Part shown: piece after piece, positions 18,889-57,600 of the stretch
Layout: each line of letters starts with the position of its first letter
Position numbering within the stretch: the stretch's first letter is position 1
NCBI GenBank assembly: GCA_963849325.1
Contig: CAWKHF010000012.1
Coordinates: 192,001-256,000, forward strand
Direction: 5' to 3'
Source: an uncultured Planctomycetota bacterium
GTDB taxonomy: Bacteria; Planctomycetota; Planctomycetia; Gemmatales; Gemmataceae
DNA: 64,000 nt
Notes under the pieces: generated by a model
Seen by the model: only the letters and a program-made list of their open reading frames with translations
What the model was told of the DNA's origin: nothing
The model's database searches: none
Position numbers and translations under genes: made by a program

Positions 18889-20928
18889 TCATTCCGCCGT
18901 GTTCACCCACGAGCGCAGCGTCTCGGCGACGCTCCACGCCTGGGCGATGCAGCCGCGCGGCCGAAACGGCTCCTCGGCGTCGGCGATCTCGCTGATCGAG
19001 CCGACGCACGCCTCGCCCAGGTGGTCGGCCAATCCCTCCAGGAAACGCCGGCCGCCGGCCTGGTCGTTGGGGTGCACTTTCAGCCAAGCATCGACGAAAG
19101 GTCCGATCAGCCACGGCCACACCGTTCCCTGGTGATAGGCCGCGTCGCGCGAACGCAGGTCGCCGTGATAGGTCGGCTTGTACTCCGGCTCGCCCGGGGC
19201 CAGCGAGCGCAGTCCCAGCGGCGTCAGCAAACGCTGCCGAACCACGCCGAGGACAGATGGCCAGCGTTCCTTGTCCAGCACCGGATGCGACAGCGAGACG
19301 GCGAAAATCTGATTGGGGCGGCAGGAGGGGTCGTCGCCCTTGTCGCCGTCCACCACGTCGTACAGGAAGCCGCCCTTGGCGTACCAGAAACGCTGGTTGA
19401 ACGAGCGTCGGGCGCGGTCGGCGTGTTCGCCGGCCGCTCGTGCCTTGGACTCGTCGCCCGCGTCGCGCTCCCAGCGTTCCAGCCAGCGCAGGGCGTTGTA
19501 CCACAGGGCGTTGATCTCGACCGCCTTGCCGCGCCGCGGCGTCACCACCCAATCGCCGCACTTGGCGTCCATCCACGTCAGTTGATAGCCCTCCTCGCCC
19601 TGCCGCAGCAGGCCGTCGGACGCATAAACGCCGATGCCGAAGTGCGTGCCGCGCAAGTGGTGGGCCACGATGTCGCGCACAATCGGCAGCATAAATTCCA
19701 GCGTTTCGCGGTCGTTGGTGATCTCGACGTAACGGCCGATGGCCTGGACGAACCAGAGGGTGGCGTCGGCGGTGTGATAGAGACCTTCCTTGCTGCCCTC
19801 GGGGAAGAGGTTGGGGATGAGACCGTCGCGGACGTGGGTGGCGAAGGTGCGCAGGATGGAGCGAGCGTCGTTGGGACGGCCGGTCGTCAGGGTTAACCCC
19901 TCCAGGCTAATCATGGTGTCGCGGCCCCAATCGGTGAACCAGTGGTAGCCGGCGATGACCGTGCGAACCTCGTCGCCAGCAGCGCCGGCCCGCGCCGCCT
20001 CCTCGGTGCGGCCGGCCGGCGTGATGAGGAACTGGTCGGCCGCCAACGTCCACTCGGCGCCCACGCCGGTTCGCGCCGACGGGGCCGTCTGCGCCAGCAG
20101 ACGCCGCCGCCGTTCGTGCTCGGCTCGGCGGGCGACGGCCGGCGTCAGGGCGTCGATCGTCTCCCAGCTCTCCGTCGAGGCCACCAGCGTGACGTCGTGG
20201 TCCGTCGTCAGGTCGATACGGAAGTAGCCGGGACTCCACAGTTCGCCCTGGGCGTCGTAGCCGCGTTCCTCCTCCAAGCGGTACAGCAGCGGCTGGGTGC
20301 GCTGGCCCTCCACCGTGAACGCTGGACGCCGGCCATGCACCTTGAAGCGCAACGGCGGCAGGCTGGTGCCGTCCGAGACTTCGTGGCGGTCGAGGATGGC
20401 CGTCAGCGCGTAGGGGCGCTCGAAGGTCGTGCTCACCTTCTCTTCGTGCGGCCGAAAATGGATGGCCAGGCGCAGCTTCAGCCGCACCGGACCCTCGCCG
20501 CCGGCCAGGCGGTAGTTGACGTGGACCGTGTTCTGCTCGTGCAAGAGCAAGACACGCTTTTCCAGCGCCCAGTCGTCGATGTCCCAGCGCCATACCGGCA
20601 GCCCTTCTTCCAGGTGGAACTCGCGGAAGTAGTCGATGCCGTGCAGGTCGAAATGGCCGCCGGCCGTCTGCTCGCCGCCGAGGCGCACCGTCCGGCCGTT
20701 GGGGAGACGGAGTTGTTCCATCAGGTGGTTGAGCATGACCATGCGGCCGAGCGGGGCAGGCAGGGCGGCCACCAGCAGGCCGTGGTAGCGCCGCGTACAC
20801 ACGCCCGCCACCGTGGACGACGCATAGCCGCCCAGGCCGTTGGTCACCAGCCATTCGTGCTCGACCAGCGGCGCCACGTCCGCGCCGCCGGCCCCCGTCC
20901 AGCGCAGGCGACGAATCAGTTCATTCAT
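18889..20928 (-). CDS. Amylo-alpha-1,6-glucosidase (glycogen debranching enzyme family)
   Basis: EWLVTNGLGGYAS, RRYHGLL, IAGYHWFTDWGRDTMISL, LTWMDAK, YHQGTVWPWL, AQAWSVAE. Confidence 0.93.
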   Translation of the reverse strand: MNELIRRLRWTGAGGADVAPLVEHEWLVTNGLGGYASSTVAGVCTRRYHGLLVAALPAPLGRMVMLNHLMEQLRLPNGRTVRLGGEQTAGGHFDLHGIDYFREFHLEEGLPVWRWDIDDWALEKRVLLLHEQNTVHVNYRLAGGEGPVRLKLRLAIHFRPHEEKVSTTFERPYALTAILDRHEVSDGTSLPPLRFKVHGRRPAFTVEGQRTQPLLYRLEEERGYDAQGELWSPGYFRIDLTTDHDVTLVASTESWETIDALTPAVARRAEHERRRRLLAQTAPSARTGVGAEWTLAADQFLITPAGRTEEAARAGAAGDEVRTVIAGYHWFTDWGRDTMISLEGLTLTTGRPNDARSILRTFATHVRDGLIPNLFPEGSKEGLYHTADATLWFVQAIGRYVEITNDRETLEFMLPIVRDIVAHHLRGTHFGIGVYASDGLLRQGEEGYQLTWMDAKCGDWVVTPRRGKAVEINALWYNALRWLERWERDAGDESKARAAGEHADRARRSFNQRFWYAKGGFLYDVVDGDKGDDPSCRPNQIFAVSLSHPVLDKERWPSVLGVVRQRLLTPLGLRSLAPGEPEYKPTYHGDLRSRDAAYHQGTVWPWLIGPFVDAWLKVHPNDQAGGRRFLEGLADHLGEACVGSISEIADAEEPFRPRGCIAQAWSVAETLRSWVNTAE

Positions 20929-22902: not shown

Positions 22903-23002
22903 AAAAATACGCACGCCCCCCTTGGCATAGATGCTGCCCTTCTCCGTAGAATTGCGAGGGTGTGCCCTCGTTGGTTTCGCCCCGATGCCGGCAGGTGTTA
23001 CC

Positions 23003-26340
<3,338 letters not shown>

Positions 26341-26364
26341 GGCGTATTCCCGATCGGACAAAAC

Positions 26365-26430
26365 TTGTCCGAGCCTGAAGCGTAAGCGAAGGAAAACATT
26401 AACCTTCGCTTACGTTTCAGGCTCGGACAA
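26365..26430. repeat. REP-like palindrome family A
   Basis: Same arms as 18346 and 40013. Confidence 0.9.
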
Positions 26431-26472
26431 AAACGGTTTGTCCGCCAGCACGAATTGGCGAGGAGTTTTATC

Positions 26473-28700
<2,228 letters not shown>

Positions 28701-40078: not shown

Positions 40079-41068
40079 TCAAGCGTCGTACTGCTTGCGG
40101 AAGTTTTCGTAGGCCAGCCGGTAGGCCTTGACCGCGGCCTCTTCCTTCTTGGCCAACTGTCCCAGCAGCTGGTTGATCTTCGTTACCACGTCGGCGGGAG
40201 CGACTTTGCCATCCTCGATCAGCGCCACGACCTCGGCCAACTCGTTGGTAAAGAAAGCTTCGTCGGCCTCCAGCAGCCGCAGGTAGGCATCCAGCAGTTC
40301 GCGCACCACCGGAGCGTTCGGCACGTCGAGCGCCTTCATCGACTCGCGGACAGTGCGGACGGTTTGCAGCAACTTCTCATGGGCCTTCTTCAGCCGCGAG
40401 CGATCGACCGGCCGACCGTCGGAGACCGGATTGAGTTCCCGGAGGAACTCCTGGAACGCCTCGCGTACCTTGCCGTGCAGCGTGTCGATCTTATCGCGGA
40501 AGGCGAAGGCGGCCTTGCCCTCGGCGGTCCAGACGCCGGTCTTCCAGAATGCCACCGTGTCCTTGACGTGTCCGACCATGTAATCGAGGGCGGTGCGAAG
40601 GTGGTTCGGCGTGATGCCGTGGTTGCTCACCGGCATCCACAGCCACAACTCGCCCGACGGCGTAATCACGAACTTGGCCGTTCCGACCTGGGCGTTGAGC
40701 TTCACGATCTTGAGAAGCGCCTCGGCCATGATTTTGTCGTCGGCGGGGACGCGGCCAAGGTACGATTCGATCCAGACCACCGAGCGGTCGGGGCTGAGCA
40801 ACACCGTCAGGTAGATGGTCCAGCCATCTCGTTTCACACAGACTTCGTACATTTTTCGGCCGTCGCTGAGCGGTGTGATTTTTCCCGGCTCGTAGCCGAG
40901 ACCGCGCAGCATCTGCAACAGGATCTCATCGGTCAGCGGCGCTCCCGGCTTGACCTCGGCGCCGGCGGTCGGCGCCCCGGGCAGGGGGGTCGGCCCGTCC
41001 GCCAGAACGCAGGACGTCATCAGGCCCAACAGGATGCCCGGCAGCAACAACTTCGTCAGACGCAACAT
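40079..41068 (-). CDS. Exported hypothetical protein with YbjN/chaperone-like N-domain and helical C-domain
   Basis: Signal peptide, LLQMLRGLGYEP, LSPDRSVVWI, LLKIVKLN. The fold call is an inference. Confidence 0.6.
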   Translation of the reverse strand: MLRLTKLLLPGILLGLMTSCVLADGPTPLPGAPTAGAEVKPGAPLTDEILLQMLRGLGYEPGKITPLSDGRKMYEVCVKRDGWTIYLTVLLSPDRSVVWIESYLGRVPADDKIMAEALLKIVKLNAQVGTAKFVITPSGELWLWMPVSNHGITPNHLRTALDYMVGHVKDTVAFWKTGVWTAEGKAAFAFRDKIDTLHGKVREAFQEFLRELNPVSDGRPVDRSRLKKAHEKLLQTVRTVRESMKALDVPNAPVVRELLDAYLRLLEADEAFFTNELAEVVALIEDGKVAPADVVTKINQLLGQLAKKEEAAVKAYRLAYENFRKQYDA

Positions 41069-41247
41069 TGTTTGTCCCCTTTTGCTCGGGGCCTCTCCCC
41101 AGGACGCCCAGCGCCGGAAGAGGCCGGCCACGTATCAAGGACCGCGGCACGACCATCGTCCGCGGACGGATGGAAGAGTTCGATTTTCTTCCACCGCTGA
41201 TACGCGGCCGGGTGGCAAAGGTAACAGGGAAAAGTGCGCAGCCAACG

Positions 41248-42638: not shown

Positions 42639-44666
42639 CTACCCCTTCTTCGCCGGAATGGCGTCGAGGATGTCCAGGACGGCTTTCTTGTTGAGCTTGC
42701 CGTAGCCCCATTCGGCGTTGGGCGTTGGCCCGGTGTGCTCGTCCCGGACGGCCTTGCCGTGGAGTAGTTCGTGGACCTGACCGAAGGTGAGGTCGGGGTT
42801 CTTTTGCAGCATGAGCGCGATGACGCCGGCGACGTAGGGAGTGGCGGCGCTGGTGCCGTTGAACAGGCGATAGCGGCCGCTGCTGTCGCGGTAGACATCG
42901 ACGTTGCTCGGCGCCGCCGCTGTAAAATACTGTCCGGGCGCCACCACGTCCGGCTTGACGATCCCCGGCGCCCGGCTGGGTCCGTGGCTGGAGTAGCGCG
43001 ACAGCGCTCCGAGCTGGATCGGCTCGCGGAACGGATCTTTGTAATCCTGGAACTGGCCGCGTTTGTGGAACTTGGTGTTCCAGTCGTAACTGCCGACCGT
43101 GATGACGTTGTGCGCCGAACCGGGATGGTCGAGTTGCATGGTCCGTTGCAGGCACTCGCCCACGAAGCGGGTCTTGTTCCCCCTTTGTCCGTCGAAATCG
43201 GTTCGCAGGAAGGCGTCCGCCTTGAGGGCCGTCCCGGAGGCACTCGCCAAGGTCAATTCGTCCTGGAGGTTCCGCGTCTTGTCGAAATCGATCTCGGATA
43301 CGACGGTCCCGATCAGGGGGTGGACGTAGGTTTGGACCTGCTTCAGACTCTCCCCGGCGATGCGGACGTCCTTGGCGTTTTTGGAGTCAAAATAGATCGT
43401 CATTCGCCCCGGTTCGCTGGCGAACCAGGTCAGTTTTGCCTTCTCCTGGCCCGGCCTGCATTCGACGAAGGCGTGCGTGCGCCAGTGGCCGGCGTTGCCG
43501 GCGGCGAAGCAGATAGCCTTCCCCTTGCTGTCGGGACCATCCAGGGGGAAGCGTACATCGAGCTGCCGCTCCATCACGCCGTTGCCGTCGTGCCCGAATT
43601 CGATCGCGTTGCCCCAACTACAGGTGATGACGTAAGGCTTTTTCGCTTCCTTCGCTTTTTGCTTGATCCAGTCGCAGAAGACGCCGAGCAGATAGCCGGT
43701 CTCCATGCCCCGCCCCGCCCCGCCGATGCGAATGGCGATAAGGTCCGCTTCCGGGGCCACGCCCGTGCTGAGGTGTGCGGCCTTGATCTCTCCGGTCGCC
43801 GCCCGGCCGTTGCCGGCGGCGATGCTGGCGCAGCCGGTGCCGTGGCTCTGATTGTCCCAGACGGGGATGTACGTCTCGCCCCTCAGGGCCGCGTTCAGGT
43901 CGTCGTTGTCGTAGACGGCCCCGATGTGCTTGCCGTTGGGATAGCGCACCGGCGCGGCGAGGCGCGAGGTCGAATCGGAGAGCGTGTCCCAGAAATAGAG
44001 CAAGCGAGAGACGGGTTTGCCGTCGCGGTCGAGGGTGATGAAATCGGGATGGCGGAAGTCGATTCCGCTGTCGATGACGGCGACGAGGACGCCCTTGCCG
44101 GTCAGCGGCACGTTGATTCCGCCGCGCACGATCTCCTCGGCCAGCTCGCGCGTCTTCTCGGCGGCCTCGGCGGTGCTCGGAGGAGGGACTTGCACGCCTT
44201 GCGCGAAATCGATCCAGCGCACGCCGGGAGCTTTCTCCAGGGCCAGCAACGTCTCCTTTTTGTTGAGGAACATATCGGCGAAGCGATCGATGCGCGTGAA
44301 CACGTCGGCCCCCTTGAGCTGGAAGTCCTGGCAAGCCTGCGGGGTGGTGAACTCGACGTGCAGCGCCAGGTACACCGAGTGCAGCTCCGGCCTGACGGCC
44401 AGCACGTCCTCGATGGGTGGATTACGGAGTAAAGTCCCTTGTTGAAACTCATCGAGGCCGCGGAGGAGGAGCTGCCGGAAAAACGGCGACATCTTCGGCT
44501 CGCCTACCGGGCCGGTAACTCCGCCGAGGTTCAGGTCGATGGGCTGATCTTTTTTGTCCGCTCCGGCCTTTTTCCCTTCGGGGGGCGCGGACGTTAAGTT
44601 GAGCCAGGAAAAGGCCAGAAACAGGATGGCCGCCACAGAGATCGTCATTGTCCTCTGCTGAGTCAC
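42639..44666 (-). CDS. S8 subtilisin-like serine peptidase, exported
   Basis: Catalytic triad motifs VAVIDSGID, HGTGCASIAAG and NGTSAATP, plus AAGNAG and KPDVVAPG. Signal peptide. Confidence 0.92.
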   Translation of the reverse strand: MTQQRTMTISVAAILFLAFSWLNLTSAPPEGKKAGADKKDQPIDLNLGGVTGPVGEPKMSPFFRQLLLRGLDEFQQGTLLRNPPIEDVLAVRPELHSVYLALHVEFTTPQACQDFQLKGADVFTRIDRFADMFLNKKETLLALEKAPGVRWIDFAQGVQVPPPSTAEAAEKTRELAEEIVRGGINVPLTGKGVLVAVIDSGIDFRHPDFITLDRDGKPVSRLLYFWDTLSDSTSRLAAPVRYPNGKHIGAVYDNDDLNAALRGETYIPVWDNQSHGTGCASIAAGNGRAATGEIKAAHLSTGVAPEADLIAIRIGGAGRGMETGYLLGVFCDWIKQKAKEAKKPYVITCSWGNAIEFGHDGNGVMERQLDVRFPLDGPDSKGKAICFAAGNAGHWRTHAFVECRPGQEKAKLTWFASEPGRMTIYFDSKNAKDVRIAGESLKQVQTYVHPLIGTVVSEIDFDKTRNLQDELTLASASGTALKADAFLRTDFDGQRGNKTRFVGECLQRTMQLDHPGSAHNVITVGSYDWNTKFHKRGQFQDYKDPFREPIQLGALSRYSSHGPSRAPGIVKPDVVAPGQYFTAAAPSNVDVYRDSSGRYRLFNGTSAATPYVAGVIALMLQKNPDLTFGQVHELLHGKAVRDEHTGPTPNAEWGYGKLNKKAVLDILDAIPAKKG

Positions 44667-44761: not shown

Positions 44762-46268
44762 GAATGGCGTTCGGTTAAGCCGCATCTTCTTGTGGTGGTG
44801 AGGTTTGGTGTAACAGTTTATGGCGCAGCACGGAGCGTGGCTTATTCATCAGATCGTACGGCTTGGGTCGCCGCTTCTTCACACGCGGCTCCACCCGACC
44901 GGGCCGACACGGGTTTACCCGCAACGGCGGCAATTCTTCCCCACACCGCGCCTCGCGCAGCCAACGCCACGCATCCGCGAAACTAATGCGCTCCGGTTCC
45001 ACGTCTTGCTGCCGTGCCGCCTCCACCATCACCCGCCGCACCAGATTATACACCAACACGAAGACCAACAACTCCTTCCACACGCCACGCCACGTCTCAC
45101 AACGTAGCACATCCATACCGAGGGTTTGCTTGAGGTGACGCAGGTTTACTTCCACGCTCCAACGCTTCTCGTACAGCCGAGCCAACACCTCCGGCGGATA
45201 ACGCCGCCGATCCAACAGGGTGGTCACCAGCGTCAACTCCCGGACGCGGCAACCCGGCGTCCGGATCGGCACACGCAACTCACGGACCACCAGCGACGAC
45301 GGCAAGGATTCATACTCCTGGCTGTCCATCCAGGCCGGACACTCGGCCGGCTTGAAGTACTCGACGAGTTGATCGTCGCGGCCCAGCCGTCGCAGCCAGC
45401 GCGACCGGGGCAAGCCCGCTTCTGCCTTACGGGGCTGGCGGTTCGGCGCTGACGTGCGTCCGTCGCGGCTTGAAGGAGATGATAAGACGCTGAGGGGCAC
45501 GAAAGAGGCTGAAAACGCCTCGTTTCTGCCGCATCGCCAGATGAGCGTAGGAACAGAAAGCGCGATCACCGGCCACTACGTCGCCGGCCCGCAGTCCGCG
45601 ATGGGTCCAGGTCAGGTCGGCCAGGTCGTGCGTGCGTAAGGGGGCCGGCATGGCATTCATCAGATAGCCGGTATAGGCGTGGAACTGCACCAGCAGATGG
45701 GCCGTCGGGAAGCCGCAGCCTTGGGCCTGCTGGCCGCTCTGACCGAAGGCGGCACGCAAGTCGGGCGTGTCCGGCATGGAGAAACTCGAACCATCCAGGA
45801 AGAAGACGCGGTGGCCATGCCACAAGGCGCGTGGGTCGTTGTCGCTGGAGCGGCAGCGGTCGAGGACGGCGACGCCCAGTCGTTGGAAGAAGGGCACGGG
45901 CAGGCGTTGTCGGGCCTCGCAGTAGGACGAGTCTGCGAAGGAAAGCTTGGCGAGGCGGCGGAGTTCGGAGACCGAGGTGTTCCCTTCGAGGATTTGGCGG
46001 ATGAACAAGTGGGTGGTGACCAGGGGAGTCAGCCGACGCTGACGTCCGCCCAGACGGAGGCGCTCGTGCGAGGGAATGGATGAGGGGGGCATCGATCCAT
46101 TGGGCGGTAGCACCCTTGATGCGTTCGAGGGCTTGCGACATACTAAGCATGGCGGCCTCCTGAGATGATGAGGTCTGGACAACTCCATCATGGCAGGAGG
46201 CTGCCGCCTTTCCAAGATCGTCAGAAGTTCAAGCAGCGAAAGAGGCTACGCTTAACCGAACGCCATTC
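44762..46268 (-). mobile_element. IS4-family insertion sequence
   Basis: Perfect 19-bp terminal IRs GAATGGCGTTCGGTTAAGC. No target duplication seen. Confidence 0.9.
44775..46150 (-). CDS. IS4-family transposase (frameshifted)
   Basis: YCEARQRLP, LDGSSFSMPDT, GDRAFCSY, YEKRWSVEVNLRHLK, RVEPRVKKRRPK. Confidence 0.9.
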
Positions 46269-46319: not shown

Positions 46320-46718
46320 TCATTGAGTACCTAAGAAGGTTTGGCCCTTAACCATGACATCACTTTTAATGTCGTATTTGTTTCCGGCTAGGTTAGCATT
46401 GAGAATGACCTGGAGGTCCAGACTGTACCGCTCGTTCCTTGCGGTTGCGACTATATTGACATAAAAAGAGATTGATAATGTGTTAATACAAACGAGGCGT
46501 GGATTAGAAGTTTCCACGCCATCGACGAGGCAATTACCTGATCCGATAAACTCGATAAATTCCATGTCTAAGTCGCTGTATTGACGACGAAGCACCCCTA
46601 GCAAGTGCTCACTTAGAAAAGCTCCCAAATCAGGCACGAGGTCCATACGCTCAAGTATCGCATTGATCGCGTCAGCCTTTTCGAAACCCAAAACGGCAGG
46701 TTGATGTGGACTTGTCAT
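46320..46718 (-). CDS. Hypothetical protein, candidate orphan immunity gene
   Basis: Lower-GC ORF following the cassette E immunity candidate. Confidence 0.55.
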   Translation of the reverse strand: MTSPHQPAVLGFEKADAINAILERMDLVPDLGAFLSEHLLGVLRRQYSDLDMEFIEFIGSGNCLVDGVETSNPRLVCINTLSISFYVNIVATARNERYSLDLQVILNANLAGNKYDIKSDVMVKGQTFLGTQ

Positions 46719-46748
46719 GATCTCTTCTTCCTCGCTTGCCAAACCAAG

Positions 46749-47141
46749 CTACAGGGGATTGGCAGAACAAAGGCGTTCTGTAATGTCTCGAAGCTGTGCC
46801 AAACACTCCGCTTCCGTTGAATAGCGACACTCACCTATCTTCGCTACAACATCTTGCCCTACTGCATGGATCCTTCTCACGTCGGCTTCGAGGAGAATGG
46901 CCGTTTCGGTCACGGTGATCTCCAAACACCAACTAACGGCTTCTCCGGAAACCAATTCTACGTCTACGTACTCCTCAAGCCGGTAACTGTCGATTAAGTC
47001 CGGCATTTCAACCACGTGCTTAACCGATCTTACTTCATTAAGCTCACTTAGGTGAATCGCATGGAGCTTGAGCCGGCGGTGGCATTCGCCAATCGCCAGA
47101 AGTAGCGGGAATCCGCGGACATTAATTGAAATCGTGTTCAT
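46749..47141 (-). CDS. Candidate immunity protein for cassette E
   Basis: Starts 4 nt after the toxin stop codon. Lower GC and acidic. Confidence 0.7.
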   Translation of the reverse strand: MNTISINVRGFPLLLAIGECHRRLKLHAIHLSELNEVRSVKHVVEMPDLIDSYRLEEYVDVELVSGEAVSWCLEITVTETAILLEADVRRIHAVGQDVVAKIGECRYSTEAECLAQLRDITERLCSANPL

Positions 47142-47145
47142 TGTG

Positions 47146-48639
47146 TTATTGAGGGAACTTTCCCGAAGCTCCAGGGCCATAGGGAGGAGTTGGCGGCTTA
47201 GGAATTACTGCGTTTTTGAGAGCGTCTGGCGTCACATTCACCACACTTACATGACCCGGTGGAGTCGTCAAGCTTCCAGGCACTCCATCTGGAATTACCG
47301 ATCCAGGTGGTAGTTTGGAGGTATCAATCGCCATGTAATCCTGGCCGGGACGAAGAACAGGCCGTTGACCACCGAGCGGACCCGGTGTACCCGGTTGAAT
47401 CGGGTTGCTCAATGAATCTCTGAAAGACAAGTGACCGCCGTCTTGAGGACGTGGTGTGAGATTAGACGGGCTGGGCCGCCCCTCTCGATAGATGATCGGT
47501 GGTGTCTCGCCCGTCGCTGGCGGTACTGGAGCGGCGGGTTGACGGCCGCGGAAGAAACTGCGGCCACCCTTAAGGACGACAGGCGCCGCTATCACTGCTG
47601 CCTGAAGAGCGGCATCTCCCAGCATCTGACGCTGCTGCGCTTGCGTCAAGCCCAGATGACGACCCGTCGCCAAGTCCTCTCCCGTCCAACCCGTGTACGC
47701 CGCGCTCACTCCCGTCGCGTCGGCCAAACCGCCCCCCAGCGATTGCAGCACCGACTGACCCTGATTGAAACCACGATCCGCCGCGCTGGACAACGCCGAC
47801 ACCGCCAGCATCCCCATGCCCACCGCGAACAGCACCGGACCAACGCCCGGAACCAACAAGGCCACCGCACCCAAACCTATGCCCGCACCAACCATCGCCA
47901 CCGTCTTCCAACTGGGGAAGTAATCGATGAACGTCTGCCAGCCGCTCTGCGGCGGCGGCGGATTGACCTGGGCGATGACCGGATCGTCCAGCGAACGCAG
48001 GGCATCGGTATCGCGCTGCTGCTGGGCGCTTTGCACGTTGGCGTTGACCTGCTTCTGCACCTGATTGAGCAGCGCCGCCCGCTGCGTGTCGGCCAGGCTA
48101 ATGCTCTGGGTCGTCTGGTCGGCGTTCTTGGCCTGGGCATCGCTGACGGAAGCGTTGACGGCGGCGACGATGGCGGCGGGTGCTGGCGCGACTTCGGCCT
48201 GCACTTGCCCAGCAGCGGCGTCGGCCGCCGCCTGGATGGCGGCATCGGCGGCCGACGCTTTCTGAACAACGCTGTCATGGCCGACGGTGGCCACTTGGGT
48301 ATCATGCGTTTGGGCGGCGCTGGCGTCCTTATCCTGTTGGTTCTTCTGGTCCTGGGCGATCTGATCGTTGCCGCTCTTGACGGCGGCGTCCTGGTTGTGG
48401 GCGGCCTGATCGTCGGAGGCGTCCTGGTTGTGGGCCGCCTGATCGTCGGCGGCGTCCACGGCTTTCTGATCGGCGGCGGTGGGGGCCTCGGTTTTCTCCC
48501 AGGCGTCGGCGGCGTCCTGGTCGGCGTTGGCGTCGGTGACGGCGGCAGTCGCTTCGTCGTTGTCGTGAGCGGCGGCATCGAGCGTGGCGGCGTGCTCGTC
48601 CGCTTGCCAGGTGATGTTTACGGCCGTTAAATACGTCAT
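47146..48639 (-). CDS. Polymorphic toxin cassette E (partial stalk, TM/PT-TG-like block, unique C-terminal domain)
   Basis: Shares the stalk and WKTVAMVG...GEDLATGRHLGL block with A, B and D. Unique tail IYREG..NLTPRP..LSF..IDTSKL..GHVSV. Confidence 0.85.
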   Translation of the reverse strand: MTYLTAVNITWQADEHAATLDAAAHDNDEATAAVTDANADQDAADAWEKTEAPTAADQKAVDAADDQAAHNQDASDDQAAHNQDAAVKSGNDQIAQDQKNQQDKDASAAQTHDTQVATVGHDSVVQKASAADAAIQAAADAAAGQVQAEVAPAPAAIVAAVNASVSDAQAKNADQTTQSISLADTQRAALLNQVQKQVNANVQSAQQQRDTDALRSLDDPVIAQVNPPPPQSGWQTFIDYFPSWKTVAMVGAGIGLGAVALLVPGVGPVLFAVGMGMLAVSALSSAADRGFNQGQSVLQSLGGGLADATGVSAAYTGWTGEDLATGRHLGLTQAQQRQMLGDAALQAAVIAAPVVLKGGRSFFRGRQPAAPVPPATGETPPIIYREGRPSPSNLTPRPQDGGHLSFRDSLSNPIQPGTPGPLGGQRPVLRPGQDYMAIDTSKLPPGSVIPDGVPGSLTTPPGHVSVVNVTPDALKNAVIPKPPTPPYGPGASGKFPQ

Positions 48640-48654
48640 CAGTGGCAGTCTACG

Positions 48655-49050
48655 CTATGATGCGCCCCAACCTGTTCCTTCGCAGATTTCACAGCGTACC
48701 TCATCATTCATACCCGTTCCAAAACAGACCGGACATTGGAACTTTAAGGACTGAAGCCCTCCTTCTATGCCCTGCCCCACAATAAAGACGGCTTTGTGTA
48801 GACACCCGTCTGCGTCGTAGAACTGAACTTCCACACGGCGGGGGTGTTCCACAATACTGACTACTTCAGAGACCTCAGATACCCTGTTGACAAAGTCAAC
48901 TGGGTCGAAGTCGCCTGCCAAAAACGGAGTTAACTTTTGCTTGAAATCCGACGGTTCGCCTCCTTCCGGCTTCGGCCAGATCGCAACAATCTTCCTTAGT
49001 CGCTCAATATAGTTACCAGTGTTTGGCTCCAAGTGGTCGTGCATGGTCAT
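48655..49050 (-). CDS. Candidate immunity protein for cassette D
   Basis: Starts 2 nt after the toxin stop codon. C-terminal CPVCFGTG...CEICEGTG. Confidence 0.7.
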   Translation of the reverse strand: MTMHDHLEPNTGNYIERLRKIVAIWPKPEGGEPSDFKQKLTPFLAGDFDPVDFVNRVSEVSEVVSIVEHPRRVEVQFYDADGCLHKAVFIVGQGIEGGLQSLKFQCPVCFGTGMNDEVRCEICEGTGWGAS

Positions 49051-49052
49051 GA

Positions 49053-51782
49053 TTATTTCAAGCTCCCTCCATACTGCTGCAACGCCGCCTCGATTCTTTC
49101 CAGTGCATCTGGCACCTGATCAAGGAACCGGAAACGCGGATCGTTCTTGAACAGGTTGGCTACGTCCTGGACATTACCTCGCGCTGAAGCGGCTTTAGCA
49201 GGCAGCGTCTTACTGAGGATTACATCGATGTTCTTATTCAGTTCAGCGATCTGGGTAGGTGTCAACTTGGCACCGGCAGGTAGAGCCTTGATTCCTTTGA
49301 TGACTTGTGGATCAGGCATCGCTCCCTTTGAACCAGAGGAGCCGGCCTGATGGCCATTGGTGTTATGACTCCAGACGGCGAAGCCCCAATCGTCACCACC
49401 CACGAAATACGTCTGCAACTCCCGCACGCGGAAATTATAGACACGCACCACCGCGCCGGCATCCACCATGTCCTCGACCATCACCGGCTCACCGCTCAGC
49501 GTCTGGATCATATCTCCACGACGCAACGACCACGCCAGCACCCAACCACGACCCGGCACGTAAAACGGATGCTCCCCCGTCGGACGCAACTCCCGACCAC
49601 CCACCGTCAGACGCACCACCGGCGCCAAGCGGACAAACACCTCCTCCACCACCTGCTCCACCACCGCAGCCGACGGATTGTACTGATCGCGGCTGAGGAC
49701 ACGGTCGCCGATCAGGATACGCTCAATCGCCTTGCAGCCGTACAGCAGACGAATCAGCGTCCCCGCCACGAAACAGGCCGTCTGCACCTGCGCCTGCTGA
49801 GCACTACCGGCCTTGCCAGCGTTGCTGCCCGCACTCGACTGCGGCGGCGTCGGCGGCTCGGTCGTCCCCTTCTGCGCCGCCGGCTGACGGCCACGCAGGA
49901 AGGAACGAGCACCGCGGACACCACCGTACAACAGCAATCCCGTCTGAATCGTGCCCTCCGTCAACATCTGACGTTGCTGCGCCGCCGTCAAGCCCAGATG
50001 ACGACCCGTCGCCAGGTCCTCTCCCGTCCAACCCGTGTACGCCGCACTGACCCCCGTGGCATCCGCCAAACCGCCCCCCAGCGATTGCAACACCGTCTGA
50101 CCCTGGTTGAAACCGCGATCCGCCGCGCTGGACAACGACGACACCGCCAGCATCCCCATGCCCACCGCGAACAGCACCGGACCAACGCCCGGAACCAACA
50201 AGGCCACCGCACCCAGACCCACGCCCACACCGACCATCGCCACCGTCTTCCAACTGGGGAAGAAATCGAGGAACGTCTGCCAGCCGCTCTGCGGCGGCGG
50301 CGGATTGACTTGCGCGATCACCAGGTCATCCAGCGAACGCGCCGCATCGATGTCGCGTCCCTGCTGGGCGCTTTGCACGTTGGCGTTGACCTGGTTCTGC
50401 ACTTGCGTGAGTAGCGCCGCCCGCTGTGTGTCGGCCACGTCGATGCTCTTGGCGGTTTGATCGGCGTTTTTGGCTTGGGCATCGCTGAGTGCGGCGTTGA
50501 CGGCGGCGACGAGGGCGGCGGGGGCCGGCGCGACTTCGGCCTGCACTTGCCCAGCAGCGGCGTCGGCCGCCGCCTGGATGGCGGCATCGGCTGCCGACGC
50601 TTTCTGGACGACGCTGTCGTGAGAGACGGTGGCTACCTGCGTATCGTGCGCTTGCGCGGCGTCGGCGTCCTTGTTCTGTTGGTTCTTCTGGTCCTGGGCG
50701 ATCTGATCGTTGCCGCTCTTGACGGCGGCGTCCTGGTTGTGGGCCGCCTGGTCGTCGGCGGCGTCCACGGCTTTCTGGTCGGCAGCGGCGGCGGGGGCCT
50801 CGGTCTTTTCCCAGGCGTCGGCGGCGCCCTGGTCGGCGTTCGCGTCGGTGACGGCGGCTGTCGCTTCATCGTTGTCGTGAGCGGCCGCATCAACGGTGGC
50901 CGCGTGCTCGTCTGCTTGCCAGGCCGTGTCCACCGCCGTCACGTCATCGGCGGCGGCCTGCGCTTCATCGTGGGCGTCGGCCACGGCGGCGTCGGCCTCG
51001 GTCTGGACGGCGACCTGAGCGTTGGCATCTTCGGCGTCGGACTCGGCGTCATCGGCCTTGGCCTCGGCCACCGTCTTGTCCGTCTCGGCGTTGTAGTCGG
51101 CCTCGGCATCAGCCACGTCCGCCGCGGCATCGCTGGCCGTGCCCTGGACCCAGGCGGCCATCTCCACGTCCAGCAAGTGCGCGTAGCGCGTGCCGGTCTG
51201 CTCGGCCCAGCTATGCACGTCGCTGCCGGCGGCCGACAACACGGCATCCACCTGCTGCTGCCACGCCGACATCTCGGCGTTGTTGCAGGCTTCGTTATCT
51301 TGCCGCGCCGCATCCAACGCGGCACTATCGGCAGCCGTGGTCTCTTGATCCCATTGTACGGCGGCGGCCGCATCGGCCAGTTGCTGCTGCTCCCAGGCCG
51401 CATCCACGGTGTCCGTCCAGGCCACGCCTGCCGCGGCATCCGCCTCGTCCTGGGCCACATCGGCGGCGCTGGCCGCGTCGTCCAGGGCCACGCCCGCCGC
51501 CGTCACTGCCGCGATGTACGGCGCATACGCCGCCGCGTTGGTCTGCTCCTCGGCGGAGGTCGCCGCCTCGTAGCTGTCCGTCCACGTCTGCTCGGCGTCG
51601 GCCAGGGCATCGTCGCATTGCTTCTGGGCGTCGGCGATGGCGTCGTCACGCACCTGCGCCGCCGCGTCCACGGTGTCGGCCAACGCCTGATCGGCAGTGG
51701 ACAGGGCGTCGGCCAGCGTCTTCTTGGCCGCCGTCATGCCCTGGTCATAGGTCCGCTCATTGTCGGCCTGAGCGTCGGCCAA
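49053..51782 (-). CDS. Polymorphic toxin cassette D (stalk, TM block, HINT, helical C-terminal domain)
   Basis: HINT from CFVAGT (49775) through TGEHPFYV to VYNFRV...WSHN (49362). Begins mid-stalk. Confidence 0.88.
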   Translation of the reverse strand: MADAQADNERTYDQGMTAAKKTLADALSTADQALADTVDAAAQVRDDAIADAQKQCDDALADAEQTWTDSYEAATSAEEQTNAAAYAPYIAAVTAAGVALDDAASAADVAQDEADAAAGVAWTDTVDAAWEQQQLADAAAAVQWDQETTAADSAALDAARQDNEACNNAEMSAWQQQVDAVLSAAGSDVHSWAEQTGTRYAHLLDVEMAAWVQGTASDAAADVADAEADYNAETDKTVAEAKADDAESDAEDANAQVAVQTEADAAVADAHDEAQAAADDVTAVDTAWQADEHAATVDAAAHDNDEATAAVTDANADQGAADAWEKTEAPAAAADQKAVDAADDQAAHNQDAAVKSGNDQIAQDQKNQQNKDADAAQAHDTQVATVSHDSVVQKASAADAAIQAAADAAAGQVQAEVAPAPAALVAAVNAALSDAQAKNADQTAKSIDVADTQRAALLTQVQNQVNANVQSAQQGRDIDAARSLDDLVIAQVNPPPPQSGWQTFLDFFPSWKTVAMVGVGVGLGAVALLVPGVGPVLFAVGMGMLAVSSLSSAADRGFNQGQTVLQSLGGGLADATGVSAAYTGWTGEDLATGRHLGLTAAQQRQMLTEGTIQTGLLLYGGVRGARSFLRGRQPAAQKGTTEPPTPPQSSAGSNAGKAGSAQQAQVQTACFVAGTLIRLLYGCKAIERILIGDRVLSRDQYNPSAAVVEQVVEEVFVRLAPVVRLTVGGRELRPTGEHPFYVPGRGWVLAWSLRRGDMIQTLSGEPVMVEDMVDAGAVVRVYNFRVRELQTYFVGGDDWGFAVWSHNTNGHQAGSSGSKGAMPDPQVIKGIKALPAGAKLTPTQIAELNKNIDVILSKTLPAKAASARGNVQDVANLFKNDPRFRFLDQVPDALERIEAALQQYGGSLK

Positions 51783-51830: not shown

Positions 51831-52325
51831 TCACACTTCAACTAGAATTGTCGAAAACCTCTCTTGCACTCCGCTTTCCGTGTTTGCGACGAATGTAAAT
51901 TTCGTCTCCCCAAGGGGTATACAGACTGGGGCGCCTGTCGCACGAAGATCAGATCCAGAAACCGGCTGGTATCTGACTTGATCGAAGGGATGCTCCTGGG
52001 TCGAGAAACCGACAAATACCTTATAACCATCGAGCTGTGGGGTGGTTTCCACAACCTCGATGAAACTCTTGCCATCATAAGACGGGTAGACTGTACCGTA
52101 TTCCGGTGTGGCGAGATCATCTTGATGTTCAGTAGAGAACAGAATCGACCGCAGAACCATGTTCTTGTAAAGGCTCTGGGCAATCTCATCCCAGTCGTCA
52201 TACGCTTCCTCATCCCGCCAAGGAATCCTCCCCCTTTCCATATAAGGAATCAAGGCCACAAGAGCGTCACGAAAATTTAGCATCAGATGGTGGACAGAAG
52301 TAGTCCACCGTTCTCCACCAGCCAT
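51831..52325 (-). CDS. Candidate immunity protein for cassette C
   Basis: TAATG stop/start overlap with the toxin. Lower GC. Confidence 0.72.
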   Translation of the reverse strand: MAGGERWTTSVHHLMLNFRDALVALIPYMERGRIPWRDEEAYDDWDEIAQSLYKNMVLRSILFSTEHQDDLATPEYGTVYPSYDGKSFIEVVETTPQLDGYKVFVGFSTQEHPFDQVRYQPVSGSDLRATGAPVCIPLGETKFTFVANTESGVQERFSTILVEV

Positions 52326-52912
52326 TAGGAACCTCCGAATAGTTTGTCGATGAAGTCCAATTCTTCTGGTGTAGGAGGCCGCTTCGGCCCAAAACCCTGA
52401 CCGGGGGTAACCGGCTTCACTCGGTCCTTGGTGATGTCAAGGATGACCTGGCCTTTATCGTCCGTGACATAGACACGTCCCTTCGATCCTTTGATCAAAC
52501 TATTCGGGGGACCGGTAAGGTTCTTAACTTGTGAGCCGCTACGGCCACCGCTCAGGGCAGGCAGGTCTGGTCTCGGTGTCGCCCCACCCTGTGGAGCAGG
52601 CGAGCCAGCCTCGTGTCCATTAGTGTTATGGCTCCAGACGGCGAAGCCCCAATCGTCGCCACCCACGAAATACGTCTGCAACTCCCGCACGCGGAAATTA
52701 TAGACGCGCACCACCTCGCCGGTGTCCACCATGTCCTCGACCAGCACCGGCTCGCCGCTCAGCGTCTGAATCACGTCGCCACGACGCAACGACCACGCCA
52801 GCACCCAACCGCGACCCGGCACGTAGAAGGGATGTTCGCCCGTCGGACGCAATTCCCGACCACTCACCGTCAGACGCACCACCGGCGCCAAGCGAACAAA
52901 CACCTCCTCCAC
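52325..52912 (-). CDS. Orphan toxin cassette C (5'-truncated HINT plus unique C-terminal domain)
   Basis: The HINT portion is nearly identical to that of cassette D. Tail GGRSG..VKNLTGPPNS..GRVYVTDDKG..DITKDRVK. Confidence 0.85.
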   Translation of the reverse strand: MEEVFVRLAPVVRLTVSGRELRPTGEHPFYVPGRGWVLAWSLRRGDVIQTLSGEPVLVEDMVDTGEVVRVYNFRVRELQTYFVGGDDWGFAVWSHNTNGHEAGSPAPQGGATPRPDLPALSGGRSGSQVKNLTGPPNSLIKGSKGRVYVTDDKGQVILDITKDRVKPVTPGQGFGPKRPPTPEELDFIDKLFGGS

Positions 52913-53027: not shown

Positions 53028-53399
53028 TTATGTCCCAGCATTCTTCTCAGCACGAAATTGCAGCCACCTAGATGCATCAACTTCATCTGCTTCAATAAAA
53101 GGTTCTCGGGGTTCAAAATGATCGAACGGGGAGGATGGCTCGCTTCGGCAGCATGGAACATCGCCGTTCTTGTAGCCAGTAGGTTTCTTTGATTGTAGAA
53201 ACGTACATCCCTCGCTCACGCTTAGATTCCATTCAAATAGCGCGTTGACCCACCACCAGCAATATCGCCTCGGGCATCCAGCCGGAGGAATCTGCGCGGC
53301 CAGAGCTAGGTCACTTTTTGTTAACCCCCGTTCAGCAAGGGAAAGACGGTGTTCGCTCATCGCATTCTCTCCATCTCGATCAAGATTTGCATTATTCAT
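53028..53399 (-). CDS. Cys/Trp-rich hypothetical protein, candidate orphan immunity gene
   Basis: Lower-GC ORF co-oriented within the toxin array. Confidence 0.5.
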   Translation of the reverse strand: MNNANLDRDGENAMSEHRLSLAERGLTKSDLALAAQIPPAGCPRRYCWWWVNALFEWNLSVSEGCTFLQSKKPTGYKNGDVPCCRSEPSSPFDHFEPREPFIEADEVDASRWLQFRAEKNAGT

Positions 53400-53824: not shown

Positions 53825-54214
53825 TCAGTCCTCTTCCCAGGCGATGTTAGCAGGTAAATGCCGCGTCCTGAAGAAATATCTAACGGCTTCACGAGCGGTA
53901 TCAAATGGGATGGCGTGCTGAATGGGGAACTCAGACCATTGGTCCATGAAATGGAAGACAACGGTTCCTTCTCCCGTTAGATCGCCAACGCTGGATAGGT
54001 ACGGCGGTTCGCCTGAACCAGAGACATAATTGAGCACGCTCAAATCCCGGCCAACTCCGATCGCAAGCGATCCACCATTCTCAGGAGCTTCGACGGAGAC
54101 AAGTACAGCTCGGTCGCCCTGGTATTTGGCGTGCAAGTCATCCAACAACGCATCAAGCTCGGATAGCGAGGATATTTCTTTCTCGCCATCCTCTGACCAT
54201 TGCACTTTCCACAT
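53825..54214 (-). CDS. Imm1-like immunity protein (second copy)
   Basis: LAIGVG..SVLNY..GEPPYLSS..VFHFMDQWSEFP..AREAVRYFF..LP..IAWEED. Confidence 0.78.
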   Translation of the reverse strand: MWKVQWSEDGEKEISSLSELDALLDDLHAKYQGDRAVLVSVEAPENGGSLAIGVGRDLSVLNYVSGSGEPPYLSSVGDLTGEGTVVFHFMDQWSEFPIQHAIPFDTAREAVRYFFRTRHLPANIAWEED

Positions 54215-54245
54215 GGTCACTATAAAGGCAGTCATGAGACAGTTT

Positions 54246-54650
54246 CTAAAACTCCTCCCAAGCAACGGCAGGACTGCGGCCACCCGTTTCCATGAAATAA
54301 GCGATGATTTGGTTTATTCGCTCAGGCGAAAGGCCGTATCGTCTATCGATCGGTGTGGCCGTACCCCCAACCACAAACTCCATGTCGCCGGCATGCGACT
54401 TCACTCCGGTCGGGCTAACTGCCATCCTATATGGAGGGGTTCCGTCGCTAGGGGCGTACTGAACACAACCAATATCAACCCCCAACCCCACTGTCAGAGT
54501 GATACCGTTATCGCCAATCAATTCACACATGAAGGGCGACCTAGAACAGCGCAACTCATTCAGCAAACCAACGATCTGTAGGGGGTTGGTAAAGCTCTCA
54601 TCGTTTCGCGGGTTGTCACGATCTTCCAAGTCCTGAAATGTTACTTTCAT
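54246..54650 (-). CDS. Imm1-like immunity protein, cognate to the deaminase toxin
   Basis: ATGA overlap with the toxin stop. LTVGLG..GCVQY..PPY..FVVGGTATPI..YFMETGGRS..VAWEEF. Confidence 0.8.
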   Translation of the reverse strand: MKVTFQDLEDRDNPRNDESFTNPLQIVGLLNELRCSRSPFMCELIGDNGITLTVGLGVDIGCVQYAPSDGTPPYRMAVSPTGVKSHAGDMEFVVGGTATPIDRRYGLSPERINQIIAYFMETGGRSPAVAWEEF

Positions 54651-57600
54651 CGAGCATTCCCAATAAACAATATGGAGGAGCCATCCGGCAACACGACCGT
54701 CAATCTGCTGCCCGGAGGCAACATGTTTGCGAGATTCTGTTGACAAGGCAGACAAATCTTCGGGTTGTTGATGTGCAGCACGGCCTCTTGAATTCCTTGC
54801 TGCCGCATCAACGCCGAAGCGTGTCCTTCTACATGCGTGGAGGTTATAGCGTTGAATCCGGGGGAAGGCTTTGGCAAGGAAGCCGCTGGTCCCGCCCGTC
54901 CACTCAGCAGGGGCGTATCACCCGCCGCCGTTCGCAGGACGCCAGACGTTTTGCCGCCCGCTACGAATTCGGGCAGCGTTACTCCTTCTCCGCAGTTGTT
55001 GTGGACGAGGACTTGCCCAGTTCCAACGGCATAGCAATGCAGACCCTCCACCTGGAAATTGTACACCTCCTGTCGAACTTGCCGCACCGCCAACCTCGTG
55101 ACCGGCGCTTGCCGACCCGACTTGAGCAGCAGCACGTCTCCCACCTGCAGGTCACCCGCATCCACCCAGCGGCCAGGAACCTTCGCTCCGGCCGGCGTCT
55201 CGGGGACGTGTTCGGGACGTGGCCGCGACTCCAGCCCTTGCCCCTCGATGACCCAGAAGGGGTGTCCGGCTGTCGCCTCGATGATTTCGCCCGCTACGAG
55301 GAGCGCTACCGAATCTCCCTCGTGATCGAACCGATAGGTCTCGACAACTGAGCGGAGCTTCCACTTCTTGGCAACGAGATCGTAGGCCCACACCCGATCT
55401 GACACCCGGATGGTCTCGATCGATTTGAGGCCCTCCGCAGCGGAAATCAAGGTGCCAGCAGGGAAGCAATTGGGGAAGCACCCTGCTTGTCGGGCAGCGG
55501 GAGCGGCCGCTTGGCGACCACGGAGGAAATTACGGCCGCCCTTGATGGCGCCTGGCAACAGCATGGCAGCGATTTGCACGCCGCTCTCTCCCAGCATCTG
55601 ACGTTGTTGCGCGTCGGTCAAGCCCAAATGGCGGCCCGTCGCCAGGTCCTCTCCCGTCCAACCCGTATACGCCGCGCTCACCCCCGTGGCGTCGGCCAGG
55701 CCGCCCCCCAGCGATTGCAGCACCGTCTGACCCTGGTTGAAACCGCGATCCGCCGCGCTGGACAACGACGACACCGCCAGCATTCCCATGCCCACCGCGA
55801 ACAGCACCGGACCAACGCCAGGAACCAACAAGGCCACCGCACCCAGACCTACGCCCACACCAACCATCGCCACCGTCTTCCAACTGGGGAAGAAATCGAT
55901 GAACGTCTGCCAGCCGCTCTGCGGCGGCGGCGGATTGACCTGGGCGATGACCAGATCATCCAGCGAACGCGCCGCATCGGTATCGCGCTGCTGCTGGGCG
56001 CTTTGCACGTTGGTGTTGACCTGGTTCTGCACTTGATTGAGCAGGGCCGCCCGCTGCGTGTCGGCCAGGCTGATGCCCTGGGTCGTCTGATCGGCGTTCT
56101 TGGCCTGGGCATCGCTGACGGCGGCGTTGACGGTGGCGATGATGGCGACGGGTGCCGGCGCGACTTCGGCCTGCACTTGCCCAGCAGCGGCGTCGGCCGC
56201 CGCCTGGATGGCGGCATCGGCTGCCGACGCTTTCTGGACAACGCTGTCGTGAGAGACGGTGGCCACTTGGGTATCATGCGTCTGGGCGGCGTTGGCATCC
56301 TTGGTCTGCTGCGTCTTGCTGGGCTTGGGCGATCTGATCGTTGCCGCTCTTGACGGCGGCGTCCTGGTTGTGGGCCGCCTGGTCGTCGGCGGCGTCCACG
56401 GCTTTCTGGTCGGCAGCGGCGGCGGGGGCCTCGGTCTTTTCCCAGGCGTCGGCGGCGTCCTGATCGGCGTTGGCGTCGGTGACGGCGGCAGTGGCTTCAT
56501 CGTTGTCGTGAGCGGCCGCATCAACGGTGGCCGCGTGCTCATCCGCTTGCCAGGCGCTGTCCACCGCCGTCACGTCGTCGGCGGCGGCCTGCACTTCATC
56601 ATGGGCGTCGGCCACGGCGGCGTCGGCCTCGGTCTTGACGGCGACCTGAGCGTTGGCATCTTCGGCGTCGGACTCGGCGTCGTCGGCCTTGGCCTCGGCC
56701 ACCGTCTTGTCCGTCTCGGCGTTGTAGTCGGCCTCGGCATCAGCCACGTCCGCCGCGGCATCGCTGGCCGTGCCCTGGACCCAGGCGGCCATTTCCACGT
56801 CCAGCAGATGGGCGTAGCGTGTGCCGGTCTGCTCGGCCCAGCTATGCACGTCGCTGCCGGCGGCCGACAATACCGTGTCCACCTGGCTCTGCCACGCCGC
56901 CATCTCCGCGTTATCGCAGGCTTCGTTGTCCTGCCGGGCCGTGTCCAACGCCGTGCTGTCGGCCGTGGACGTATCCGCGTCCCACTGCTCGGCGGCGGCG
57001 GCATCCGCCAGTTGCTGCTGCTCCCAGGCGGCATCCACGGTATCGGTCCAGGCCACGCCGGAGGCGGCGTCGGCTTCGTCCTGGGTCACGTCGGCGGCGC
57101 TGACCGCATCATCCAGAGCCACGCCCGCCGCCGTCACCGCCGCGATGTACGGCGCGTAGGCCGCCGCGTTGGTCTGCTCCTCGGCGGAGGCCGCCGCCTC
57201 GTAGCTGTCCGTCCACGTCTGCTCGGCGTCGGCCAGGGCATCGTCGCATTGCTTCTGGGCGTCGGCGATGGTGTCGTCGCGCACCTGCGCCGCCGCGTCC
57301 ACGGTGTCGGCCAAATCCTGATCGGCGGCGGACAGGGCATCCGCCAGCGTCTGCTTGGCCGCGGTCATGCCGTCGTCATAGGTCAGTTCGTTATCAGCCT
57401 GTGTGTCGGCCAACGTCTGCCCGGCGTCGGCGGCACTGTCCAGGTACGCCTGCAGAGCTTGCGCCTTGGCCGTTTGCAGGTCGGCCAACGGCTGGGCCAG
57501 GGCCTTGGTGTAGCCGGCGTTGGCGTCGTTGACGGCGTTGTTATAGACTTGGCGGGCGTTGGCATAGGCATCGTACTTGGTCTTCTCGATGGCGTTGGTC

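Follow-up and report, generated by a model that had tools for sequence, protein, structure and literature searches.

We have analysed a stretch of 64,000 nucleotides (the window, whose own positions are used below) from an uncultured planctomycete of the family Gemmataceae (contig CAWKHF010000012.1, positions 192,001 to 256,000, assembly GCA_963849325.1). Our results indicate that nucleotides 54650-54994 of its minus strand very likely encode the C-terminal toxin domain of a planctomycete polymorphic toxin, predicted to act as a zinc-dependent cytosine deaminase and belonging to the DddA-like/SCP1.201 family. It forms the tip of copy B, the second of four nested paralogous minus-strand cassettes (A to D) in the window. 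The native copy B gene (59318..54647) most likely encodes one protein of ~1556 amino acids, in which a helical stalk rich in Ala, Asp, Gln and Thr is followed by a conserved pretoxin region (which includes a hydrophobic hairpin), a PT-HINT autoprocessing domain and the 115-residue deaminase. Family, fold, motifs, domain order, gene pair and cassette array are established for this locus.

The similarity of this segment to DddA/SCP1.201-type deaminases is far beyond chance. The domain forms the C-terminal 115 residues (nt 54650-54994, with the stop codon at 54647-54649) of an open reading frame (ORF) with 631 open codons (54647..56542, minus strand), and matches the Pfam family PF14428 (DddA-like, formerly SCP1.201-like deaminase, BaDTF1) over profile positions 23-128 of 137, with 62.7 bits (E 4.3e-17; cut-off 25 bits). 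It starts right after the end of the HINT domain, '...GQVLVHNN', and reads CGEGVTLPEFVAGGKTSGVL...THVEGHASALMRQQGI...NNPKICLPC...MLPPGSRLTVVLPDGSSILFIGNAR up to the stop. The zinc-binding and catalytic residues are H570, E572, C597 and C600 of the ORF, which correspond to H76, E78, C103 and C106 in the 137-residue query, and the H-x-E ... (P)C-x-x-C signature is present as H76-V77-E78 and C103-L-P-C106. Every feature of PF14428 membership that sequence, model and gene context could check is found in the domain. A sequence-only reading had placed a HINT-released deaminase toxin at 54647..54997. The feature is real and its limits are good to one codon, as the last Asn codon of the HINT begins at 54997, one codon before C517; its strand had to be specified as minus. 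All the motifs quoted in that reading are found in the ORF translation (THVEGHASALMRQQGI, NNPKICLPC for NNP.ICxxC, MLPPGSRLTVVLPDG and the terminal FIGNAR before the stop), and the DddA string that it cited (HVEGQSALFMRDNGI .. NNPEgTCGFC .. LLP) is that of chain 6u08_A in our phmmer alignment. The hidden Markov model (HMM) search which it proposed as a check of the family, together with the motifs and the fold, agrees with its assignment to SCP1.201/DddA.

As a single-sequence structure prediction of the deaminase was unusable (pLDDT 42), we took an alignment-based AlphaFold (AF2) model instead, which reached a pLDDT of 87.9 with only the first ~23 residues (HINT end and linker) disordered. 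With this model, all 11 Foldseek matches at E<=1e-3 were DddA or TOD4/6 entries (6u08 at E 9e-8). The VIA alignment to DddA gave a Z score of 14.7 and a root-mean-square deviation of 2.4 over 107 residues (model 20-137 against DddA 1295-1417). DddA and TOD6 were the top VIA matches (Z 14.6-15.4, TOD6 at 15.4), and the next families came out lower: BaDTF3 at Z 9.0, DYW at 7.9 and cytidine deaminases at ~6.5. The predicted fold is closest to that of DddA. In sequence, a phmmer search of PDB entries likewise returned DddA entries only at E 2e-8 to 5e-7, followed by the TALE-deaminase fusions TOD4/6 at ~0.02.

The family is large. A HMMER scan of 1.84 billion representatives gave 663 clusters at E<=1e-3, of which 307 reach E<=1e-10 and 34 reach E<=1e-30; the best match (P0005) has 82% identity. 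In an alignment of 80 rows (the deaminase query and 79 of the shorter HMMER matches), the two Cys of the zinc site (C103, C106) never vary, and conservation of H76, V77 and E78 is at least 90%. A tblastn search against plasmids returned five Streptomyces records with 33-36% identity, and the 8.16-Mb assembly holds a single copy of the deaminase. The coordinates of the features of the locus are collected in Table 1.

Table 1. Features of the deaminase locus and the surrounding cassette array, in window coordinates.
Feature	Position	Strand	Description
Copy A	59926..64000, continuing past the window (putative ATG at L002:350)	minus	longest copy; unclassified toxin tip
ORF between A and B	59312..59926	minus	204 aa, GC 0.50; candidate copy A immunity gene, no family match
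Copy B	54647-59318	minus	deaminase-bearing; 631-codon and 1014-codon ORFs
Upstream ORF of copy B	56274..59318	minus	1014 codons; N-terminal stalk, from composition and 89.8% match to copy A
Frame break in gene B	56310..56325	minus	one extra base, about 56318; DNA alignment with C, D and G001
Hydrophobic segment	55751..55882	minus	44 residues (aa 221-264); Kyte-Doolittle 19-residue window >1.6
PT-HINT autoprocessing domain	54995..55468	minus	C359 (CFPAGT) to N516 (VLVHNN), then C517
Deaminase toxin domain	54647..54994 including stop	minus	C517-R631 of the 631-codon ORF, 115 aa and stop
ImmA	54246..54650	minus	Imm1 family, 134 aa; PF14430 28.8 bits, cut-off 22.4
ImmB	53825..54235	minus	second Imm1-family gene, 136 aa; PF14430 69.4 bits, E 6e-19
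Orphan HINT fragment	52325..52912	minus	C-terminal part of a PT-HINT domain, with unclassified C-terminal domain; PF07591 E 1.4e-11
Copy C	49053..51782	minus	5'-truncated orphan, 909 codons; stalk end, pretoxin, PT-HINT, unclassified toxin; junction in frame
Copy D	47146..48639	minus	shorter 5'-truncated orphan, 497 codons; pretoxin and unclassified toxin, no HINT; junction in frame
IS (insertion sequence) transposase DDE_Tnp_1	44775..46215	minus	array 3' end; domain split over two frames

The carrier of the deaminase is the less familiar part of the system, and we describe it here rather than explain it. The sequence-only reading had the deaminase directly after the HINT His-Asn pair, and the PT-HINT domain is indeed found just upstream (PF07591, 61.6 bits against a cut-off of 27.7, E 1.2e-16), with a weak match to the intein C-terminal family TIGR01443 (16.9 bits, cut-off 15.6). 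Its hallmarks are all present: the N-terminal Cys (C359), the C-terminal pair H515-N516 and the nucleophile C517. Ahead of it, the hydrophobic segment is the sole such stretch in the 631-codon ORF and is long enough for a two-helix membrane hairpin; a hydrophobic segment is conserved in the pretoxin region of copies A, C and D and of metagenome homologues. The 1014-codon ORF of the stalk overlaps the 631-codon ORF in a different frame and has a strongly biased composition (A 26.7, D 14.1, Q 12.8 and T 10.1%; A, D, Q, T, N, E and S together 78%). It gave no Pfam or NCBIfam match and no usable ESM Atlas match. The Ala/Asp/Gln/Thr/Asn-rich stalk extends over ~1300 amino acids (56274-59318; 60721-64000, minus strand; L002:3-806) with no hydrophobic segment. 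Scans for tandem repeats and for promoters or terminators gave nothing above background. The constant region itself is found in two of ten same-genus genomes, as one weak match elsewhere among 40 relatives, and in a handful of metagenome proteins.

Two genes of the Imm1 family follow the toxin. The ATG of ImmA overlaps the toxin stop codon as ATGA (CGATGAAA), and ImmB is 23% identical to ImmA; ImmB also matches DddI (6u08_B) weakly over its full length (E 0.47). Both proteins end in Trp followed by an aromatic/acidic terminus (...VAWEEF and ...IAWEED), and W131 is invariant in the Imm1 alignment (set A2). Toxins 78% and 73% identical to the deaminase are present in a Pirellulales and a Planctomycetaceae metagenome-assembled genome (L003 and L004, respectively). 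In both loci an ImmA orthologue (47% and 45% identity) begins at the toxin end, and the N-terminal parts of these toxins are unrelated to the copy B carrier. In a table of Zhang 2012 (PMC3482391), SCP1.201 deaminases are paired with Imm1 for immunity, with planctomycetes among the taxa. Because of the stop/start overlap, the orthologues behind related toxins and this published association, ImmA is the probable cognate antidote of the deaminase; ImmB would be an extra or orphan immunity gene. A relative from the same family (G013, L005:1480-2324) has a stand-alone PF14428 ORF of 134 amino acids, with a differently spaced Cys pair (PCPTMNVKVLGC), and an overlapping Imm1-like ORF of 147 amino acids; this pair looks like a toxin-antitoxin system, without any carrier.

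The deaminase gene belongs to an array with the classic layout of polymorphic toxins, that is, a main gene followed by progressively 5'-truncated orphan cassettes. Copy B shares 89.8% identity with copy A over 3626 nt, reaching 55491 just ahead of the HINT domain, 90.9% with copy C over 1858 nt and 88.7% with copy D over 1016 nt, and within the 8.16-Mb assembly a pretoxin query matches these four cassettes only. The HINT part of the orphan fragment (326 nt, 52587-52912) is 90.8% identical to the HINT of copy C by blastn. Since the constant region is common to copies A to D and they diverge from the HINT or toxin onward, their tips would be swappable by recombination. Each cassette has its own C-terminal tip, then small ORFs of low GC content (0.45-0.52, against 0.56-0.62 in the tips and 0.67 in the constant region). 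No Pfam or NCBIfam family matched the tips of A (59926-60385), C (49053-49323), D (47146-47614) and the HINT fragment (52325-52586), or the small ORFs at 59312..59926, 51831..52325, 48655..49050, 46749..47180, 46320..46742 and 53028..53399. These four unclassified tips and the small low-GC ORFs are candidates for new toxin/immunity pairs.

For this deaminase system we infer cleavage, delivery, substrate and toxicity, and propose the following sequence of events. The ~1556-residue toxin would be exported, after which Asn516 of the HINT would cyclise and free the deaminase, from Cys517 onward, at or in a neighbouring cell. There, H570, C597 and C600 would bind zinc and E572 would shuttle a proton, with conversion of C to U in DNA, and cells without immunity would be killed or mutagenised. 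The producer would be shielded by ImmA, with ImmB as an additional Imm1 paralogue. The available text of Zhang 2012 (PMC3482391) describes polymorphic toxins that are set free when a target cell is contacted, through cleavage by HINT at its C-terminal Asn. Because HINT is, in that same text, never combined with type VI secretion system (T6SS) or PVC delivery, the delivery route here would differ from the T6SS of DddA.

The nature of the substrate, single-stranded (ssDNA) or double-stranded DNA (dsDNA), had been left open in the sequence-only reading, and it can be inferred in part. We numbered the phmmer alignment to DddA from H1345/E1347, and this numbering matches every residue named in the accessible part of PMC10442228. 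According to that part, Phe1375 is the DNA-intercalating wedge of DddA, Met1379 and Ala1341 are its hydrophobic minor-groove partners, and the substitutions F1375A/R and M1379A/R abolish DddA activity. In the planctomycete deaminase these three positions are Pro105 (Phe1375), Asn109 (Met1379) and Ile72 (Ala1341). Its loop, C-L-P-C, has no aromatic residue between the two Cys, unlike C-G-F-C in DddA and C-G-Y-C in TOD6, which has been solved on DNA substrates and has Tyr at the position of the DddA Phe. Among the best 150 of the 663 matches, a regular expression found the Cys motif in 117, and only two of the 117 have an aromatic at the Phe site (Trp in both), the most frequent residues being Ser (58), Asn (22) and Pro (19). 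In a tree of 158 unnamed rows, the deaminase falls in a clade of 13 (SH-aLRT 95), of which 11 have C-x-P-C.

The C-terminus tells a similar story. The sequence-only reading correctly had the domain without the basic tail of DddA: the last model residue, 137, pairs with DddA 1417, and the protein ends ...FIGNAR, without a motif related to the basic SPKK. Beyond the PPEG/LPDG motif that both sequences share, chain 6u08_A has 29 more residues in the sequence alignment and the deaminase has nine. The compactness put forward in that reading is real as to the short C-terminus and is not peculiar to this protein, as the domain ends at most five residues from the protein C-terminus in 146 of the best 150 of 663 matches, and the 31 residues past C-x-x-C equal the median of the same set. 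In the available part of Mi 2023 (PMC9935910), the SPKK tail is needed for the dsDNA activity of DddA, and four of four homologues without it are weak or inactive on dsDNA. In the portion of Huang 2023 at hand (10.1101/2023.05.21.541555), the dsDNA subclade consists of DddA and ten others among 332 clustered PF14428 proteins, and most of the other proteins tested act on ssDNA. The deaminase thus misses three checkable Ddd hallmarks, namely the aromatic wedge, the Met1379/Ala1341 partners and the SPKK tail. Because Phe1375 and Met1379 are not kept, the tail is absent and most family members tested act on ssDNA, we give moderate preference to a Sdd-like enzyme that leans to ssDNA; dsDNA is a much less probable substrate, and the remainder goes to other or unknown ones.

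A true dsDNA deaminase of the Ddd type, which would open or bend the duplex with another wedge such as Leu104/Pro105 and need no SPKK tail, is unlikely in our judgement, even though the nearest solved structures all act on dsDNA (DddA at Z 14.7, TOD6 at Z 15.4), identity to DddA across the core alignment is ~37%, and N1339, a phosphate contact of DddA, is kept as N70. This structural ranking cannot separate Ddd from Sdd proteins, because no solved Sdd structure is among the PDB matches of the deaminase. The Pro and Asn found in place of Phe1375 and Met1379 lie at sites where changes kill DddA, and the tail-less homologues and the small size of the Ddd subclade cited above argue in the same direction.

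Several observations weigh against our interpretation of the locus as a whole. For the proposed export we found neither a signal peptide nor a gene of a secretion system nor an established trafficking domain. The deaminase has Ser at position 82, where Ala is at least 90% conserved in the 80-row alignment, and the deaminase family is patchy, with matches in three of 40 relatives and none of ten same-genus genomes. The suggested preference for ssDNA is built on three residues, an absent tail and published trends. In the assembled sequence, a 1-nt insertion near 56318 interrupts gene B. Should this insertion be genuine, any synthesis of the deaminase would have to begin at an internal start, without the stalk. 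Copy B is also without ~59 codons of the copy A 5' end: homology ends at 59280, and 13 unrelated codons lie between that point and the B ATG at 59318. Copy B may be a silent orphan cassette.

Under this alternative, the frameshift would be real, B would not be translated whole, and the deaminase, behind an expressed copy A, would be either a module in storage or a pseudogene. Besides the frame break and the missing codons, it draws on the orphans that the locus evidently keeps, namely copies C and D, both nested and 5'-truncated, and the HINT fragment, and on a base missing from copy A near 61207, in the same stretch of ~12 nt that contains the copy B insertion. We nonetheless hold it to be improbable, since indels occur throughout the assembly, even in the essential rpoB; the 631-codon frame, the catalytic residues and the coupled ImmA are all intact; and B has its own ATG, overlapping the end of the preceding ORF. 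In rpoB, the Rpb2_3, Rpb2_45 and Rpb2_6 domains lie in three frames within 2.1 kb (open frames of 546, 135 and 612 aa). Two HSP70 genes are split as well, and many of the 59 PSD1 domains are present as adjacent pieces; these 59 matches, against none in 14 control genomes, mark the genome as that of a planctomycete. Within the window, three further domains are split, those of an alpha-amylase, a CBM48-isoamylase gene and the transposase. Because rpoB, HSP70, PSD1 and window genes carry indels too, with one expected per 4.7 kb, the frameshift of copy B is in all likelihood an artefact of the assembly, and its native product would be one protein of ~1556 amino acids. The junction is in frame in six of eight copies: C, D, the same-genus homologue G001 and the metagenome copies P0172, P0173 and P0174. 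Frameshifts anywhere in this genome need read-level confirmation.

Two more ambitious readings, which we consider jointly, are quite doubtful. The C-x-P-C clade may be a natural minimal dsDNA deaminase that opens the duplex without the Phe wedge or the SPKK tail; if true, it would offer a scaffold of ~110 amino acids with a new sequence-context preference. Similarly, the carrier, which combines the stalk, a membrane hairpin and PT-HINT, contains no recognised secretion domain and was seen in this genus and a few metagenomes only, may represent a so far undescribed toxin delivery route specific to planctomycetes.

It is very improbable that the coinciding breaks of A and B reflect programmed recoding or an intended division into two genes (stalk; transmembrane-HINT-toxin): two independent indels, +1 in B and -1 in A, do fall within about 12 nt, and a database gene call (P0169, 539 aa) starts just past the break, but the shifts are opposite in sign, the alignment has no common slippery sequence and the six copies named above are continuous, on which grounds a programmed frameshift was rejected; moreover, the copies diverge most at the junction, with near-identical sequence on both sides, and consensus errors are likely in such a patch; copy A has two other breaks elsewhere (about 60590 and 60141).

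Other parts of the sequence deserve mention. Indel-affected spots of the assembly lie at 336291-338389 of contig 1 (L018), 10012-11784 of contig 10 and 104083-105788 of contig 11. On the plus strand of the window, the alpha-amylase is split between the ORFs 22931..24448 (profile 5-270) and 23142..26378 (profile 318-403), and at 26438-28700 (plus strand) ORFs with CBM48 and with amylase/Isoamylase_C domains overlap in different frames. The two regions (22931-26378 and 26438-28700) are probably two genes of glycogen/trehalose metabolism that assembly indels have broken, and lie beside an intact GDE_N/GDE_C debranching-enzyme gene (18889..20928). Upstream of copy A, a 463-codon ORF rich in Pro, Ser, Thr and Gly (L002:340-1731, minus strand) ends 8 nt past the putative copy A ATG. 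It may encode a low-complexity protein in its own right, or else the real N-terminus of copy A, shifted away by a further indel. Beyond the IS element, the minus strand carries a 675-aa subtilase (42639-44666) and a 350-aa ORF (40079-41131) with sub-threshold matches to the type III secretion system chaperone families TY-Chap1 and CesT.

In the light of what is known of these systems, the deaminase is an ordinary addition to a known and heavily mined family, and not a new type of enzyme. SCP1.201-Imm1 pairs after HINT, planctomycetes included, were catalogued in 2012, as given in the accessible part of PMC3482391. The candidacy for base editing raised in the sequence-only reading concerns a family that at least three groups have already mined systematically for base editors (10.1101/2023.05.21.541555; PMC9935910; PMC11472066). 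Judged by title and abstract, none of the ten papers found on planctomycetes, polymorphic toxins and deaminases together dealt with an experimentally tested planctomycete member. If active, the protein would be one more compact DNA deaminase, with about 110 folded residues, and its distinctive C-L-P-C active-site loop could extend the Sdd/Ddd base-editor toolbox by a new context preference. The locus would also document interbacterial, probably kin-discriminating, warfare in a planctomycete, through a textbook cassette-swapping array on an undescribed carrier. Neither point overturns existing knowledge.

The closest known system is DddA of Burkholderia cenocepacia (BaDTF1; 6U08, 8E5D/8E5E), with which the deaminase shares the Pfam family, the H-x-E / C-x-x-C zinc site and the fold, as well as the position at the C-terminal tip of a large interbacterial toxin with a small (here putative) immunity protein encoded downstream. 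Unlike DddA, to which its core is ~37% identical, it has one residue fewer ahead of the first Cys and no counterpart of residues 1418-1427 (the SPKK tail, with Lys1420), and 16 more DddA residues within 1295-1417 are unaligned. DddA is delivered by T6SS, as given in the accessible text of PMC7901873, whereas the deaminase here is preceded by PT-HINT. With the ssDNA-acting Sdd proteins of the SCP1.201 clade (Sdd7, Sdd6, SflSdd and others), which we liken to it by description, it shares the Pfam family and compactness, the active cores of Sdd proteins being ~130-160 amino acids. In the available part of PMC13034033, the directly downstream ORF of 136-140 amino acids is the Sdd inhibitor Sddi, a size close to that of ImmA (134 aa) and ImmB (136 aa); the Sdd hosts named in the text at hand are actinobacteria (Actinosynnema mirum for Sdd7), not planctomycetes. 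As in the SCP1.201-deaminase/Imm1 pairs of Iyer 2011 and Zhang 2012, the toxin is C-terminal after HINT and the Imm1 proteins end in Trp plus an aromatic terminus (AWEEF, AWEED). Unlike in these catalogued pairs, the carrier matches no described stalk (no RHS, FilH or ALF Pfam match) and has a hairpin before the HINT. Finally, the array resembles the orphan arrays of Rhs and CdiA, in which the copies behind a long main gene lose more and more of their 5' end, keep homology to the constant region and carry different tips and immunity genes, yet it has no RHS or filamentous-haemagglutinin repeats, and its first downstream copy, B, is near full length with its own ATG.

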